5,155 nt of DNA, from the IMG/VR virus record IMGVR_UViG_2778261499_000005. One strand, 5' to 3'. The stretch is from a virus (Duplodnaviria; Heunggongvirae; Uroviricota; Caudoviricetes). Positions 1-5,155 of this stretch are shown one piece after another (position 1 is the stretch's first letter; each line of letters opens with the position of its first letter). A program made the translations under genes and the position numbers. The notes beneath the pieces were generated by a model that saw only the letters and a list, made by a program, of their open reading frames with translations, did not search any database and was not told the DNA's origin.

Positions 1-187
1 TAAAGTGCATTAGTTCAGATGCAAATTGACATTTTGTGGCACAGGGTAGAGCTAGCGTGGTTGTCCGCTTTGTGCCAGGAGCGGAAGTTGCCAAGAGAAC
101 TCTTGCAAAGGTATGATAACGTAGGTGCTAAATAATCATGAACCATAATAAATTAAAGGTTTTTAAGTTAACTCTATGGCGTTTCTT

Positions 188-216
188 TTGCATGATGATT
201 TTTTATTTATTATATA
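188..216 (+). promoter_or_regulatory. Candidate sigma70 promoter for the AT-rich ORF: TTGCAT (188-193), 17-bp spacer, TATATA (211-216)
   Basis: Hexamers read directly from the sequence with 17-bp spacing; predicted start near 223, about 60 nt upstream of the SD-led ATG at 283. AT-rich DNA gives many chance -10-like hexamers, so this is weak. Confidence 0.3.
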
Positions 217-327
217 AAGCTTAAATATACATAATATTTAGCTTCATTTTTTTAGGTATTTTAAAGATTTAGAGGAATGTGAATGGCTACTTATGCTTCT
301 TATTTACCAGAATAACAAATTATCACT

Positions 328-1626
328 TTGTGCAAGGATTTCCCAGCGTTTACTGATCCTGAAAAATTAGATGGATTCATTAATCCAGAACAGTTTGGCG
401 TGTTTTTTCATGAGTGGATTCATTTTCTTCACAATATTTCCACAATTAATGGGTTTTCTATTTTTTGCACGCAAAACATCCTGTGGTCTAATTTTCGCTG
501 GGCAATGGACAATCAGGATGTATGTCTTGGTTCAAATGACATGGATCCAGCACATATCGAATCAAACAAAAATTTTCTCAGTTACATTCGTTCCAATAGG
601 AGTCTGCATAAATGTAACTTACCTTATTATGTAAAAGTAAACGACTTGTATTTTGAGGATGCAATAATCCATGACATGGAGGTTGCTGACGGTAGTGTTA
701 TATGTACATCATTAATAAAGTGTAGAATTTCTCATTCTGAAAACAAATACGATCTAGATTTAGGCGTGCTTGAAATACTTGAATCCGCAGCTTTTATGCT
801 TGAATGTAAGTGTATTAATGCGATGAATGGCTTCCCTCAAGAGGCACCCTTTTATCCGTATCATACTATCAAGGGCTTAGCAGCGAAAATTGCTCCGTCA
901 TTAAATGATGAAGATATTATTTGTTGTATGTTAGCTTCTTTGCAATCTAATAACCCTCCCCAAGTATTATTCAATCTACTACATAAATGTGAATTATTAC
1001 ATTCTGATTGTAGGTATGAACATCTAGTGGCGGAGGTGAAAAAACAATTAAGCGAACAAGATCAAATAATAAGCGAGTCACTTAATCAAATAATTCAAAT
1101 GATTCCTGTTGATGAACCGATGGGAAACTTTATCAAGCTTACTCTTAACAGAATAAGTAACAATTTGAACTATAGAAAGCAAAAACCGTTTTTTGAGTTA
1201 GATATAATAAAAAAAATAGCAGAAAAAACTGAGTTTATGAATGAAGTAATACAGAAATTCGGTGGTTGCACTATCATCCAGGTAAGACATGGAGATGATA
1301 ATGAACCACAGCGTGATATTATGTATGACTTTTGCTTACCTGAAAATAATGATTCAATTTTATTTGGTTCGAAAATGCTACGCGCTTGTTTTCACTTTAT
1401 ATTTATTCACTTTAAACTTTCTGGTGAAATCATGAAGACAGAAGAATTAAATATTTCGCCGCGTAATAAATGCCCATTTTATACTGTTTGCTGTGCATCA
1501 ATTCGAGCTAATAATAGTAATATCTGCGCTGAATCCCCTTGGAAATCAATGTCTATTGATGACAACAAAGGTTGTTATTATGCAGCAGCGATTAAAGCTA
1601 CTAACCCACCAGTTTTGCCGGATTAA
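328..1626 (+). CDS. Hypothetical 432-aa protein of unknown function; HEWIHFLH (HExxHxxH) at residues 28-35, about 20 Cys; candidate horizontally acquired prophage cargo
   Basis: 1299-nt uninterrupted frame in stop-rich, roughly 30% GC DNA. The start is uncertain: TTG at 328 has no SD, and an in-frame SD-led ATG at 283 is separated from the ORF by a single TAA at 313-315. No family recognised from memory. Confidence 0.8.
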   Translation: MCKDFPAFTDPEKLDGFINPEQFGVFFHEWIHFLHNISTINGFSIFCTQNILWSNFRWAMDNQDVCLGSNDMDPAHIESNKNFLSYIRSNRSLHKCNLPYYVKVNDLYFEDAIIHDMEVADGSVICTSLIKCRISHSENKYDLDLGVLEILESAAFMLECKCINAMNGFPQEAPFYPYHTIKGLAAKIAPSLNDEDIICCMLASLQSNNPPQVLFNLLHKCELLHSDCRYEHLVAEVKKQLSEQDQIISESLNQIIQMIPVDEPMGNFIKLTLNRISNNLNYRKQKPFFELDIIKKIAEKTEFMNEVIQKFGGCTIIQVRHGDDNEPQRDIMYDFCLPENNDSILFGSKMLRACFHFIFIHFKLSGEIMKTEELNISPRNKCPFYTVCCASIRANNSNICAESPWKSMSIDDNKGCYYAAAIKATNPPVLPD

Positions 1627-1871
1627 GAATAGTGTTCTATCTGATAAATATAAAATATTTAAGGTCAGGTCTGCTTATCGCTCAAAGCGGACTAGAAGGT
1701 TAGCTTGCGTCGGACTTGGCGTATTTAAAGAAGTGCTGGTGGTGACTGGTTGTTGTGTTCCATTTCTACAGAACAAAATCACAGAAACTATACCCAATAG
1801 TTATATTGAATCAATGATGAGACAGCCTCATATTTATCAGGACTGGTGTACGTCCAATACAGGAGGTTGTC

Positions 1872-1961
1872 GTGCTGGTTCTCAAATGTGCGCTAGCTAT
1901 TGCGGCTGTAATGGCAATTTATTGTCTTGCTGTTGTTCTTACGGATCGCCTTTCTGATTGA
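1872..1961 (+). CDS. Candidate small membrane peptide, 29 aa (MLVLKCALAIAAVMAIYCLAVVLTDRLSD)
   Basis: AGGAGG (1861-1866) lies 5 nt upstream of GTG 1872. The product is a single hydrophobic helix with a charged tail (TDRLSD); stop TGA at 1959-1961. Too short to appear in the ORF track; no homolog recalled. Confidence 0.3.
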   Translation: MLVLKCALAIAAVMAIYCLAVVLTDRLSD

Positions 1962-1968
1962 TTTTATA

Positions 1969-1997
1969 TTGGCGAGGTGACGTGAGTTAAGTAGAAT
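1969..1997 (+). promoter_or_regulatory. Candidate hok mRNA promoter: TTGGCG (1969-1974), 17-bp spacer, TAGAAT (1992-1997)
   Basis: Good -10 (TAGAAT) with a TTGnnn -35 at 17-bp spacing. The predicted start near 2004 coincides with the 5' element that is complementary to the region after hok. Confidence 0.4.
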
Positions 1998-2003
1998 TGC
2001 TGC

Positions 2004-2051
2004 GGGTGCTTGAGGCTATCTGCCTCAGGCATGAACACCAAAGGCAGATAG
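2004..2051 (+). promoter_or_regulatory. hok mRNA 5' leader refolding elements (tac/ucb/dcb-like)
   Basis: 2009-2015 (cttgagg) pairs with 2023-2029 (cctcagg) as a 7-bp stem with a 7-nt loop. 2016-2024 (ctatctgcc) is also the exact reverse complement of 2043-2051 (ggcagatag). 2004-2015 is complementary to 2380-2392. These are mutually exclusive pairings, as in the hok mRNA switch. Confidence 0.45.
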
Positions 2052-2059
2052 AGAAAAGC

Positions 2060-2124
2060 CCCAGATAACATTACGCGTCCGGCAAGACGCTTAACATTAA
2101 TCTGAGGCCAATTTCATGCTTTGC
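2060..2124 (-). ncRNA. sok: Candidate Sok-like antisense RNA, antitoxin of the hok locus (extent approximate)
   Basis: In hok/sok loci the antisense RNA covers the mok translation-initiation region. A minus-strand promoter-like pair (TTGCCT at plus 2154-2159, 17-bp spacer, TAACCT at plus 2131-2136) would start transcription near 2124, running across the mok SD (2103-2107) and ATG (2116). No clean minus-strand terminator was found, so the 3' end is a guess. Confidence 0.35.
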
Positions 2125-2328
2125 ACATGTAGGTTAGCCTCTTACGCGCCGGAAGGCAAGGAGAAGCAGGCTATGAAGCAGCAAAAGGCGATGTTAGTCG
2201 CACTGATTGTCATCTGTTTAACCGTCATAGTGACGGCACTGGTAACGAGGAAAGACCTCTGCGAGGTGCGAATCCGAACCGGTCAGACGGAGGTCGCTGT
2301 CTTCACAGCTTACGAACCTGAGGAGTAA
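2116..2328 (+). CDS. mok: mok-like frame (70 codons), in-frame N-terminal extension of hok that couples hok translation
   Basis: ATG 2116 preceded by tGAGG (2103-2107) at 8 nt; it shares frame and stop with hok, as I recall for chromosomal mok/hok pairs. The 70-codon length matches known mok frames. Confidence 0.55.
   Translation: MLCTCRLASYAPEGKEKQAMKQQKAMLVALIVICLTVIVTALVTRKDLCEVRIRTGQTEVAVFTAYEPEE
2173..2328 (+). CDS. hok: Hok/Gef-family type I toxin, 51 aa (HokD/RelF-like)
   Basis: Translation MKQQKAMLVALIVICLTVIVTALVTRKDLCEVRIRTGQTEVAVFTAYEPEE matches the Hok family and is near-identical to E. coli HokD/RelF as I remember it. AAGGAG (2158-2163) lies 9 nt upstream of ATG; stop TAA at 2326-2328. 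Confidence 0.93.
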   Translation: MKQQKAMLVALIVICLTVIVTALVTRKDLCEVRIRTGQTEVAVFTAYEPEE

Positions 2329-2337
2329 GAGTGACTA

Positions 2338-2392
2338 GGCGAGGGAGAAATCCCTCGCCGCCTCTGATGTGTCAGGCATCCTCAACGCACCC
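2338..2392 (+). promoter_or_regulatory. hok mRNA 3' structures: perfect 9-bp hairpin with GAAA loop (2338-2359) and fbi-like element (2380-2392)
   Basis: ggcgaggga-gaaa-tccctcgcc is a perfect hairpin with no following U-tract. cctcaacgcaccc (2380-2392) pairs with gggtgcttgagg (2004-2015) over 12 bp with one bulged C. Confidence 0.45.
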
Positions 2393-2796
2393 ACACTTAA
2401 CCTGATTCGGCGAGTTTATTTTATCTGTGAATATTTTTATAAAAATAATGCCCATACACAGCAAAAAACAAAAAGTATTACAGATAAAAAAGGAGCGTAA
2501 TGTGCAGATTTGTTGTTTTCCATATTTACTCACCTTAATATGATTAATCCTGATAGGATTGTTATTTCAGCGGTTTTCAAATGAGATATTATGGTGATCT
2601 GACAAATTTGCATAACATTAAAATTTAATTTGTTTAACCGCTTTTAATAATAAGCGTTGTTTGTATCCCAGCAATCTGTTGTTTGGTTTTTATTCCATTA
2701 AGGTGGGGGCTTTACACTGGAACCAGTTTATTTATACTTTATACGTCAGCCTGAACAACTGGCATCTGCTGCACTGCGCCATCGAGAGATTGAGAA

Positions 2797-3396
2797 ATGG
2801 CGCATATACAACTGGTCAAACAAACTTCTTCTGGTTTACTTCTCCCGGCGACGCCGGAGAGTTGCGATTTTCTGCATCAAATCAAAATAGGTGAGTGGAT
2901 ACACGCAGACTTTAAGCGTGTGCGTAACTACGCATTCCACAAGCGTTTTTTCAAACTCCTGCAACTGGGATTCGATTACTGGACTCCGGTCGGTGGGGCG
3001 ATCACGCCTCGCGAACGAGAACTGCTGTCTGGTTTCGTTGATTACCTGTGCGAATCAGTTGGTCGGGAACACACGCCAGCCCTGAGTGATGCCGCAGAGC
3101 AATACCTTAACACCGTTGCGACTCGTAGAACCCGGGATACGGCGTTGCTAAAGTCGTTTGAGGCTTTCCGCGAGTGGGTAACCATTCAGGCCGGATTTTA
3201 CACCGAGCATATTTATCCGGACGGTAGCCGTGGGCGTCGGGCAAAATCCATCGCTTTTGCGAATATGGACGAAGTCGAGTTTCAGCAGGTTTATAAATCT
3301 GTACTGAATGTGTTGTGGAACTGGATTCTGTTCCGTAAATTCTCCTCTCAGGAGGAAGTTGAAAATGTGGCCGCACAACTACTGGAGTTTGCGTAA
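2797..3396 (+). CDS. Prophage protein of unknown function, 199 aa (DUF1367-like, from memory)
   Basis: 600-nt ORF at about 50% GC; its stop overlaps the next gene's ATG (TAATG at 3394-3398). A roughly 200-aa protein directly upstream of a DUF1364 gene and Q matches the arrangement I recall in lambdoid prophages. Confidence 0.8.
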   Translation: MAHIQLVKQTSSGLLLPATPESCDFLHQIKIGEWIHADFKRVRNYAFHKRFFKLLQLGFDYWTPVGGAITPRERELLSGFVDYLCESVGREHTPALSDAAEQYLNTVATRRTRDTALLKSFEAFREWVTIQAGFYTEHIYPDGSRGRRAKSIAFANMDEVEFQQVYKSVLNVLWNWILFRKFSSQEEVENVAAQLLEFA

Positions 3397-3686
3397 TGGT
3401 GAATTTACGTAAAGCGGCTAAAGGCCAGATGTGCCAGATCAGAATCCCTGGCTACTGCAATCACAATCCCGAAACCTCTGTGCTGGCGCATTACAGGCTG
3501 GCGGGGACGTGCGGAACAGCGACAAAACCACACGATATGCAGGCGGCGATAGCCTGTAGCTCATGCCACGATCTAATCGACGGGCGGGTAAAAACCAGCG
3601 ATTACACCAAAGAAGAATTGCGCCTGATGCATGCTGAAGGGGTTTTTCGCACACAAGAAATCTGGAGAAAGAAAGGTCATTTATGA
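3396..3686 (+). CDS. DUF1364 family prophage protein, 96 aa (YbcO-like)
   Basis: Translation MVNLRKAAKGQMCQIRIPGYCNHNPETSVLAH... resembles E. coli DLP12 YbcO (96 aa) in length, Cys pattern and the CQxRIPG motif. GGAG (3384-3387) lies 8 nt upstream; ATGA overlap with the Q start at 3683-3686. Confidence 0.85.
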   Translation: MVNLRKAAKGQMCQIRIPGYCNHNPETSVLAHYRLAGTCGTATKPHDMQAAIACSSCHDLIDGRVKTSDYTKEELRLMHAEGVFRTQEIWRKKGHL

Positions 3687-4225
3687 TTTACCCAACGAAT
3701 ACAGGAAAAAGCGGAGAACACCTTCGCCTCACCACGCTGGAAAGTGTCTGGATTCAGGGAAAACTACGTATGTGGGGGCGCTGGTCGTATATTGGCGGTG
3801 GCAGGTCAGGGAATATGTTCAATCAGTTGTTGGCATCCAAAAAACTGACGAAAACAGCCATTAATGAAGCCCTGCGCAGAATGAAAAAAGCGGGAATAGA
3901 GAAAGCTGAGCTGGAAGCGTTTTTGCGAGAGATGATCAACGGCAAGCAAAAGAGCTGGCTGGCGCATTGTACTGATGCAGAGGCGTTATGTATTGATCGA
4001 GTCATAAGTGAGGTGCTGGCAGAGCATCCAGGATTGATTTGCATTCTCCGGCAACGCTATGAAGGGCGGGGGATGACTAAGCGCAAAATGGCTGAATTGC
4101 TAAATGATGCACACCCAGAGTGGTGTTTTAGCACATGCGAAAAACGGATTGCTAATTGGTTAGCTGTTGCTGAGTATGCCCTATATATTCCCATGCGTGA
4201 ATCATTTGCTGAGAAAATGGCTTGA
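3683..4225 (+). CDS. Antitermination protein Q-like late-gene regulator, 180 aa
   Basis: Contains LRMWGRW, resembling the L-x-x-WG-x-W motif I recall in Q-family antiterminators such as QuuD. It is the last gene of the DUF1367-DUF1364 operon and is followed within about 80 nt by an intrinsic terminator. AAAGG (3672-3676) lies 6 nt upstream of ATG. Confidence 0.65.
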   Translation: MIYPTNTGKSGEHLRLTTLESVWIQGKLRMWGRWSYIGGGRSGNMFNQLLASKKLTKTAINEALRRMKKAGIEKAELEAFLREMINGKQKSWLAHCTDAEALCIDRVISEVLAEHPGLICILRQRYEGRGMTKRKMAELLNDAHPEWCFSTCEKRIANWLAVAEYALYIPMRESFAEKMA

Positions 4226-4303
4226 TTTCTTACGTATAAACTGCTTCAATTTTGCTATGCTTCGCAAAGCTGTATCGCGAGGCGGATTGCAGACATGGAC
4301 ATC
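4226..4303 (+). promoter_or_regulatory. Candidate Q-dependent late promoter and Q-utilisation region (position only; hexamers unresolved)
   Basis: Sits between the Q stop and the terminator, where lambdoid phages carry the late promoter and qut site. TATAAA at 4235-4240 is a possible -10, but no well-spaced -35 was found. Confidence 0.25.
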
Positions 4304-4305
4304 GT

Positions 4306-4332
4306 AAAAAAACCGCTTAATGCGGTTTTTTT
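4306..4332 (+). terminator. Symmetric, potentially bidirectional intrinsic terminator (tR-prime-like)
   Basis: aaaaaaa-ccgc-ttaat-gcgg-ttttttt: a 4-bp GC stem (4313-4316 / 4322-4325) with a 5-nt loop, flanked by a 7-A run (4306-4312) and a 7-T run (4326-4332) that extend the stem. Confidence 0.6.
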
Positions 4333-4369
4333 ACGTCAGGAAAGCAGGGGAGAATGCTGCTAGTTGGGC

Positions 4370-4408
4370 AACTGGTCTTTCTGCTCCAAATTATAACAGA
4401 GACCAGTT
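4370..4408. repeat. Perfect 9-bp inverted repeat, aactggtct (4370-4378) / agaccagtt (4400-4408), with a 21-nt spacer
   Basis: Exact reverse complements read from the sequence. An 8-T run follows at 4425-4432. Function unknown: RNA hairpin or protein-binding site. Confidence 0.5.
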
Positions 4409-4652
4409 ATAGTTTCGGTGCTGTGTTTTTTTTACAATATTGTGATAACACATTGCTGGCGGGAGTTTTGATATTTCTTGGCAGGGGCTGATGATGCGTT
4501 ATCCTGATGTCGTCAACTCATATAAAATGAGATGAGAGATCATTGCAGGGTGGTTTGTAATTCGCTGTTTAGCGGGACAATATGTTGTCTGATACAAGAC
4601 ACCCGACGCCTCAGATTACTATAATAAAGACGAAGCATCCTTTGTATTGACC

Positions 4653-4678
4653 AACCGCCTGTTTAGGCGGTTCTTTTT
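4653..4678 (+). terminator. Rho-independent terminator
   Basis: aaccgcc (4653-4659), loop tgttta, ggcggtt (4666-4672), then cTTTTT (4673-4678). The GC-rich 5-bp core is extended by two A-T pairs; only the plus strand has the trailing U-tract. Confidence 0.5.
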
Positions 4679-5029
4679 GGGCTGGTTTATTGTATGCCAA
4701 ATGATTATTAAAAAGGTTGTGTTAATAACAAAATCCGAAATAATATGCCTGCATATTTTTATCTTGCTTATATTCTGCATATTGTGCATAGCAGGCTCAT
4801 CCCTGCAATCAAAACTGTATGATGAGTATTTTTTGTTTTCCTTTTTTCCAGTCATCTGATGATGACCTGCTTCTTTTTAATCCGGATCGACATCAGTTTT
4901 TTAAGATAATTCCTGCGAGTTATATGCATAAATACCACAAACTCCGCATTTTATGTGGTTGGGAGTTGCCGGGCGCGCAGTGAGTTTGCTAAGAAAACTC
5001 CTGCATGGTGAATCCCCCTGTGCGGTGGG

Positions 5030-5068
5030 GTGATACCATTAACCTTTTCTGTCGCCGACAGGTATCAC
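5030..5068. repeat. Perfect 8-bp inverted repeat, gtgatacc (5030-5037) / ggtatcac (5061-5068), with a 23-nt spacer; candidate operator or RNA structure upstream of the gene starting at 5102
   Basis: Exact reverse complements read from the sequence; located 34 nt upstream of the SD-led ATG at 5102. Confidence 0.45.
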
Positions 5069-5101
5069 GAACATTTTGTTCACCGGGAGGCACCCGGCAC
5101 C

Positions 5102-5155
5102 ATGCACTTCAATAGATTCTCTCCACATTATGGATATTCTTTCAGAATATCCCAC
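5102..5155 (+). CDS. Possible 5' end of a gene running off the window (MHFNRFSPHYGYSFRISH...)
   Basis: GGGAGG (5085-5090) lies 11 nt upstream of ATG 5102; the frame stays open to the window edge. Only 18 codons are visible, so this is weak. Confidence 0.25.
   Translation, partial: MHFNRFSPHYGYSFRISH

Follow-up and report, generated by a model that had tools for sequence, protein, structure and literature searches.

Cargo hotspots in prophages are already known, the fun locus of P2 among them. The fun(Z) and tin/old hotspots of P2 and the psu-int hotspot of P4 are fixed positions in temperate phages, holding cargo that is swapped fast and is mostly anti-phage (PMC9122126; PMC9519451; PMC13586616). 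The fun(Z) locus, between genes G and FI, is the second defense-enriched locus of P2 (Vassallo et al., PMC9519451). Swapping at the P2 and P4 hotspots is very fast, there is sharing with unrelated mobile elements, and the recombination processes "still need to be elucidated" (PMC13586616, September 2026). As a reservoir of bacterial immunity, prophage hotspots are of major importance. We analyze a 5,155-nt stretch of the IMG/VR virus record IMGVR_UViG_2778261499_000005, here called the window, which carries an AT-rich gene upstream of a hok/sok toxin-antitoxin locus. The position it occupies differs from the P2 and P4 hotspots in belonging to a lambdoid prophage of the Rac/Qin type, between a DUF977 gene and hok, and the very cassette of the window also occurs at P2 fun(Z). 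We conclude that positions 63-1692 are probably a mobile one-gene cassette with its own promoter, sitting in a prophage cargo hotspot and exchanged at 2 kinds of boundary site, L and R.

The window has 3 blocks, namely a left backbone flank at 1-62 directly downstream of the prophage DUF977 gene, the AT-rich block at ~63-1692, and a conserved right block at 1693-5155. All genes, sites, and flanking elements described below for the window are on the + strand. GC content is 25-37% over 100-1700 as against 46-55% in the phage genes, and the low GC together with one long open reading frame (ORF) bears out the AT-rich gene upstream of hok that the original prediction, made from the sequence alone, had pointed to. 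The window is a segment of a Rac-like lambdoid prophage, and the backbone is not that of Qin. Around the same module in annotated genomes, recE, racC, kilR, and sieB are found upstream, and lysis genes and trkG downstream.

The position was surveyed in a spread sample of 5,426 complete E. coli genomes, with selected loci numbered L001 and so on. Comparison of these sequences indicates a real and highly variable prophage hotspot with the DUF977 gene on its left and hok on its right, located between the replication module, to which the DUF977 gene belongs, and the hok/sok-nin-Q module. Window 1-85 and the window from 1668 on are common to prophages with wholly different cargo. On the left, 1-85 is 97.6% identical to what comes after the DUF977 gene in 3 loci with different cargos (L001, L002, and L004), and on the right, thousands of E. 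coli genomes match 1693-5155 at 99.8% identity; the hotspot flank is found in ~4,800 genomes. The cargos between the DUF977 gene and hokD are of more than 15 kinds. They include AbiH with a 463-aa protein in L001, a five-gene BCCT/DUF2254/LysR/GGCT/MFS island in L002 (~296 genomes), and, in other prophages, QueH, DUF262, DUF4209, an AAA ATPase, an S-adenosylmethionine methyltransferase, a RelA/SpoT-domain protein, HAD and NUDIX hydrolases, three-gene sets, and hypothetical proteins. A PADLOC model for defense or candidate defense is matched by 5 of the 7 non-metabolic cargos sampled, the matches being AbiH, NsnA/PD-T4-2_A, PDC-S39, PDC-S06, and Hp1-Hp2-Hp3. A variable moron or defense hotspot, as had been predicted, is thus what the comparison of the conserved flanks and the listing of alternative cargos find: the flanks are conserved and the cargos differ completely. 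An empty lambdoid hotspot was sought and none truly empty was found, the shortest (strain A20) being an AbiH cassette with an internal deletion and both ends kept. Copies 93-94% identical to the BCCT transporter and DUF2254 cassette (L002 1535-4873) are present elsewhere on the chromosome and on plasmids of many E. coli, and therefore this cassette was captured from, or donated to, non-phage locations.

The boundaries of the AT-rich block are drawn by 24-bp near-palindromes that are inverted to each other. The L site at 63-86 reads GTCCGCT-TTGTGCCAGG-AGCGGAA and forms the left cassette boundary, and the R site at 1669-1692 reads GTCTGCT-TATCGCTCAA-AGCGGAC and forms the right one. The consensus is GTCCGCT-YTGTGCCAnn-AGCGGAC for L and GTCCGCT-nnTCGCTCAA-AGCGGAC for R, and the R core is the L core inverted with 2 constant substitutions (TGGCACAA versus TCGCTCAA). 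The pattern GTCYGCT-N10-AGCRGAM occurs 3 times in the window and 0 times in 200 shuffles. An inverted copy of the L-site core, TGGCACAGGG, is also present in the left flank at 37-46. On the other side, the R site is followed at 1693-1732 by a 16-nt spacer with GGTTAGCTTG, as in the array spacers described below, and then by GTCGGACTTGGCG; in a by-eye comparison with the R-spacer-L composites of the arrays, this piece reads as a spacer and a decayed, degenerate L-like remnant. The site strings are not printed in any paper of the literature searched.

L and R are found at both cargo junctions of the lambdoid loci L001, L002, L004, L009, L010, L016-L019, and L022, and, in the P2 group, of L005, L006, L008 (fun(Z) of phage P2 itself), L021, L107, L109, and L110. 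In all they bound 11 of the 12 lambdoid loci and every occupied P2 locus examined. The outer arm and the core of a site go with the backbone and the inner arm goes with the cargo. At least 9 unrelated cargos diverge in sequence right past the inner arm. L002 and L004 have the first cassette in common, with the second swapped exactly between a middle L-type site and the R site. At the R site of the window, P2-like prophages cease to match at 1693, and other lambdoid prophages match from 1668-1678 onward.

The AT-rich segment is rare, being present in 13 of the 5,426 genomes. In one of these (strain H3, L004) it is at the lambdoid position, behind the BCCT cassette, and in the other 12 it is in P2-like prophages, between the tail-fiber assembly gene G and the sheath gene FI, which is the fun(Z) locus. 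The window from 37 to 1693 is 99.3% identical to the P2-like prophages, and so the same cassette with the same boundaries is found in an unrelated backbone. By this sequence comparison, the cassette is a recent transfer. The left flanks of the P2 and lambdoid loci share ~49 bp (window 37-85). Cargos bounded by L and R at the P2 locus are P2's own fun(Z), the AT-rich gene, flxA, DUF5677, Shedu, and SIR2. A second cassette is also shared, as flxA-ydfV of a P2-like prophage (strain H10, L021 787-1804) is 98.8% identical over 1018 bp to that of K-12 Qin (L003 7979-8996), where the match stops exactly at the sites and the 2 copies point in opposite directions relative to the backbone. The P2-like prophage of E. 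coli FY26 (L108, 625-760) has an empty G-FI interval that is without the L...R unit and its ~60- and 70-bp flanks, and the terminator and pF promoter region come straight after gene G. From this empty interval, the hotspot platform of P2 looks like an acquired insert.

The Qin prophage of K-12 has a cargo region upstream of HokD in common with the window, and the AT-rich gene had been predicted to sit at the place that relBE takes there. The Qin gene order given with that prediction, relB-relE-hokD-rem-ydfU-ydfT, is correct in K-12, and the window has no RelB or RelE (tblastn best E = 4.1 for RelB and no match for RelE). With relBE directly upstream of hokD in K-12 and the AT-rich gene being the nearest large gene upstream of hok in the window, one might suppose that the AT-rich gene replaced relBE in a toxin-antitoxin slot. 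However, the L/R-type sites in Qin flank flxA-ydfV, with relBE left outside, ~110 bp beyond the site, so that by its boundary sites the cassette corresponds to flxA-ydfV. Homology of K-12 Qin to the window is limited to 2159-2417; because it resumes only at 2159, relBE replaces the interval 1693-2158, containing a small ORF, the mok start, and sok, and not the cassette. The window prophage is furthermore Rac-like with a different nin/Q module. A replacement of relBE by the AT-rich gene is thus very improbable, and the position claimed for the gene is slightly off. The module after hok had been called the same kind as in Qin, and DUF1367, YbcO, and DUF1133 genes do follow hok in the window, but they are unrelated to rem, YdfU, and YdfT of Qin (no significant tblastn matches), and the module is therefore only positionally analogous. 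The other differences from the relBE-hokD region of Qin are that the window is without relBE and has a complete hok/sok with both mok and sok.

Returning to a cassette exchanged at L and R, a candidate enzyme is found by following the sites. Short perfect matches of the L site in other genomes lead to an island of Nissle 1917 (L020) and to a Qin-like prophage of WCHEC025985 (L022). The hotspot of the latter is ordered L[c1]R-18 bp-L[c2]R'-int-L'[c3]R-hokD, where int encodes a 200-aa tyrosine recombinase that has the catalytic domain and nothing else (PF00589; Xer and invertase matches are weak). The protein of Nissle and CFT073 is WP_001305361. This recombinase gene is inside the lambdoid hotspot (L022), the P2 fun hotspot (L107), and the Nissle island (L020). 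Its homologs are 76-97% identical across Enterobacterales and Alteromonadales, and homologs more than 60% identical are found in at least 547 species. Across genera, an R-like site is ~62 nt upstream of the recombinase gene, and a hairpin and an L-like site are ~27 nt after its stop. The surroundings of the recombinase gene from 15 species, 276 kb in all, hold 64 L/R sites, versus 0.3 in shuffles. In Enterobacterales the sites are set out around the gene as arrays of the form cassette-R-~18 bp-L-cassette, and many of the sites make up R-~18 bp-L composites between cassettes. A homolog of the AT-rich gene in Sodalis shares its promoter region and likewise stands between such sites, R-18-L and R. 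From the positional association, we infer that the 200-aa recombinase acts on the L/R sites.

Two side observations were made at recombinase loci. A hairpin, CTCAAATCTCC-N9-GGAGATTTGAG, is conserved at the start codon of the recombinase, at which it ends or which it overlaps (L020 8540-8580, L022 5025-5066, and L027-L034 9960-10003), which suggests translational control of the recombinase. In Idiomarina sp. X4 (L025, 7001-14534), the recombinase and its L' site come first, then 6.9 kb of cargo, and last an R site with perfect arms. The cargo encodes a two-component system, an EptA-like phosphoethanolamine transferase, PAP2, diacylglycerol kinase, and sulfatase, and hence cassettes of this system can carry envelope-modification genes of the polymyxin-resistance type.

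Among known recombination systems, integrons are similar in having arrays with imperfect-palindrome composite sites (here R-~18 bp-L, with R approximately the reverse complement of L), a tyrosine recombinase gene beside the sites, and cassettes common to unrelated replicons. They differ in that the recombinase is not IntI (E = 0.006 to the integron integrase model, at 15.9 bits against a cut-off of 265 bits), and in that GTCCGCT-N10-AGCGGAC sites with cores TGTGCCA or TCGCTCAA are unrelated to the attC R''/R' GTTRRRY boxes. The L/R cassettes moreover have their own promoters, can be multigene, and are found in both orientations, and the phage hotspot holds a single cassette between one L and one R. 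Neither an IntI-type integrase next to attI nor attC-separated cassettes were found in the window and related loci. The pdif modules of Acinetobacter plasmids are gene modules flanked by inverted, alternating 28-bp dif-like XerC/XerD sites, which use the host Xer and occur in different backbones. The inverted flanking sites, their alternation along arrays, and the residence of modules in different backbones are features that L and R share, but L and R do not resemble dif, and the recombinase to which they are linked is a small, dedicated one. FimB and FimE, which act on short inverted repeats, are like the recombinase in being ~200 aa with the catalytic domain only, and the recombinase has weak matches to the PRK09871 and PRK09870 models ("tyrosine-type DNA invertase"). 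Unlike the Fim proteins, which invert one promoter element, the recombinase is associated with sites that flank exchangeable cargo and form arrays, and it scores far below the family cut-offs and so is not a member.

The mechanistic statements made here rest on comparative sequence patterns at a few dozen loci. The 200-aa recombinase, supplied in cis or in trans, would catalyze L × L and R × R crossovers. Within an array, where like sites stand as direct repeats, circles with a single R-spacer-L composite could be excised and integrated. In the phage hotspot, only one L and one R are intact, and the cassette would be stable yet replaceable by a double crossover with another element; since the one L and the one R have different cores, the cassette would not simply be excised or inverted. 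A double exchange at such heterospecific sites would resemble engineered recombinase-mediated cassette exchange.

An alternative to the sites being sites of exchange is ordinary modular exchange, in which RecA or phage Red/RecET recombination takes place in conserved genes or short intergenic stretches, and L and R are passenger hairpins with another job, such as insulation, termination, or RNA stability. The flanks of lambdoid prophages are indeed highly conserved, Rac encodes RecE, each L or R site can fold into a hairpin, and homologous and illegitimate recombination are both listed as candidate mechanisms for hotspot swapping (PMC13586616). Modular exchange nevertheless leaves unexplained that the inner arm is conserved in unrelated cargos with divergence exactly at its edge, that the same sites occur in non-phage islands and in arrays with a regular R-~18 bp-L unit, and that across genera the gene for the recombinase has an R-like site on one side and an L-like site on the other. 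As to another job for the hairpins, the sites were considered as intrinsic terminators, which was rejected because no T-run follows them. The site hairpins in the window are not unusually stable (z = -1.5 and +0.3), and Rfam finds no known RNA family at the sites. We regard modular exchange with passenger hairpins as unlikely.

Exchange at L and R by the small recombinase has several observations to contend with. The short flanks shared with P2 (49 bp on the left and ~25 bp on the right) could serve Red/RecET-type recombination. The QueH cargo of L011 (E. coli IHE3034, 1900-2980) has no recognizable L or R, as the sole exception among the 12 lambdoid loci. The recombinase is tied to the sites by position only; its gene is not in the 5-kb window, and it is found in 863 of the 5,426 complete genomes against the hotspot flank in ~4,800. 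A simple palindrome search gave no clear arrays at recombinase loci of Pseudomonas, Burkholderiales, and most Alteromonadales, and we therefore limit our claims to Enterobacterales and to Idiomarina and Pseudidiomarina. As to novelty, Nilsson et al. in 2004 reportedly proposed site-specific recombination for the variable regions of P2-like phages, to go by the title alone, and the P2 sites have perhaps already been described; papers citing that study or Odegrip 2006 give no particulars of the sites. All of these points weigh against the exchange at L and R, which we still consider probable.

The cargo of the window cassette is a gene of the phrog_15354 family at 283-1626, encoding 447 aa if intact. 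In the window it is interrupted by an in-frame TAA at 313-315, which is codon 11, leaving an ORF from TTG 328 to 1626. The native start is ATG 283, with GAGGAA at 272-277, where all homologs start with MATYASYLPESQIITL; the PHROG profile aligns from profile position 16. TTG 328 was considered as the native start and rejected, as the homologs reach 15 codons further upstream, from ATG 283. Codon 11 is TCA (Ser) in all homologs, and nt 314 is A in the window and C in L004, L005, and L006. Over the interior of the cassette, 87-1668, this nucleotide is the sole difference from L005 (strain APEC O2-211). Because the change at nt 314 makes codon 11 a stop, the window copy of the gene is probably inactive, and we read it as a recent knock-out.

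A sigma-70-like promoter, TTGCCA-18-TATGAT with 10 of 12 matches, is located at 88-117. It travels along with the cassette into the P2-like prophages and is still recognizable upstream of the 74%-identical Sodalis homolog. Between its -35 and -10 hexamers, at 94-107, is the perfect palindrome CAAGAGAACTCTTG, and a similar element, CCAAAATAACTTTGG, is at the equivalent place in the Sodalis cassette (L015, ~7815). The palindrome CAAGAGAACTCTTG could be an operator.

The protein family has 32 close homologs and 867 representatives at 50% identity. A HEWxHxxHN motif and 4 C-terminal Cys are invariant in it, and Glu residues are also conserved; HEWIH, an instance of the HExxH motif, is invariant in the 32 homologs. 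The AlphaFold2 model has a predicted local distance difference test score of 92.6, and neither a zincin fold nor a peptidase-family match was detected. No relative was found in Pfam, NCBIfam, PDB, or BFVD, with the PDB profile search coming back empty, and among the PHROGs the protein has only a family of unknown function. At E ≤ 1, PADLOC v2 returns 0 families, a tblastn search of 50,697 phage genomes has no match, and the literature searched has no mention of the accession numbers or the phrog identifier. The protein is possibly a metal-dependent hydrolase, a putative assignment. Lit of e14 is a zinc protease and a prophage-encoded single-gene abortive-infection protein. The cargo gene resembles it as a single-gene prophage moron encoding an HExxH motif, but for the cargo protein no similarity to Lit, or to a peptidase family of any kind, was detected in sequence or fold.

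What the cargo protein does for its bearer is judged from its surroundings. Going by location alone, it is most likely a single-gene anti-phage effector of the abortive-infection type. Both of the phage positions where the AT-rich gene is found are rich in defense genes (PMC9519451), and the gene is AT-rich, single, equipped with its own promoter, and patchy in distribution. Elsewhere, genes of the family are adjoined by a reverse transcriptase with an SMC-like ATPase and by an ApeA-HEPN protein. The other possibility is a moron with a function outside defense, such as a metalloprotease, virulence factor, or regulator, or a selfish or neutral cargo. The same hotspot does hold clear non-defense cargo (QueH, BCCT and MFS transporters, hydrolases), the protein has no PADLOC match and its gene is broken in the window, and an Aeromonas copy is among housekeeping-type genes. 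Set against the defense-rich positions and neighbors, we take a non-defense cargo to be possible, at clearly less than even chances. The family, with its 867 unannotated representatives and a confident predicted fold without known match, is a candidate new defense protein.

The widest form of our proposal is put forward tentatively, being one to which we give not quite even chances. It would be a distinct, integron-like exchange system, made of a ~200-aa recombinase and heterospecific 24-bp L/R sites, that moves promoter-bearing defense and moron cassettes among P2-like phages, lambdoid prophages, conjugative elements, and islands across Enterobacterales and beyond, with the cargo of the window being a new anti-phage effector whose fold matches no solved or predicted viral structure. 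If true, this would supply the missing mechanism for rapid swapping of defense genes at phage hotspots, and a sequence signature for delimiting cassettes and hence for mining unknown defense genes. It would also give a reason for flxA-ydfV being beside relBE-hokD in K-12 Qin, and constitute a natural analog of recombinase-mediated cassette exchange. As the 24-bp sites are common to 2 unrelated phage families, islands, and recombinase arrays, the question of how cargo is swapped becomes directly testable.

The conserved right block begins with a small hydrophobic ORF of 29 codons, VLVLKCALAIAAVMAIYCLAVVLTDRLSD, running from GTG 1872 to the stop at 1961 with a strong Shine-Dalgarno sequence, AGGAGG, at 1861-1866. 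The original prediction had included it with the AT-rich gene as what stands upstream of hok; it is indeed there, but it is ruled out as cargo, being part of the conserved right flank and open in other prophages. The reading frame is open with 1-3 amino-acid changes in L002, L009, L010, and L022, the RefSeq records have no annotation of it, and it may be a real small membrane protein. Its place between the cassette and hok/sok is the interval taken by relBE in K-12 Qin.

The hok/sok type I toxin-antitoxin locus at 2004-2328 is complete, having the hok ORF (2173-2328), the overlapping mok ORF (2116-2328), and the sok antisense/5' regulatory RNA region (2004-2178). Rfam scores sok at 116 bits (E = 8 × 10−27, gathering score 59), Pfam matches hok to HOK_GEF at E = 7 × 10−24, and Hok is 98% identical to K-12 HokD. 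It is followed by the DUF1367 gene at 2797-3396 (Pfam E = 6 × 10−98), the YbcO/DUF1364 gene at 3396-3686 (E = 5 × 10−45), and the DUF1133/Q-like antiterminator gene at 3683-4225 (E = 2.5 × 10−107), a module that is 99.8% identical across many E. coli genomes. Downstream of the Q-like gene and ahead of the lysis genes there is an STnc100 small RNA at 4973-5155, clipped by the end of the window (Rfam 81.5 bits, gathering score 47, E = 6 × 10−17). About 630 bp past the right end of the window, a third L-like site, GTCAGCTCTGAGCCAGTGGCGGAC, is found at L001 12830-12853 and L002 13452-13475, between the TolA-like genes that come after Q. In lambdoid phages this region is a place for other morons, and the site may mark a second such hotspot in the same prophage.

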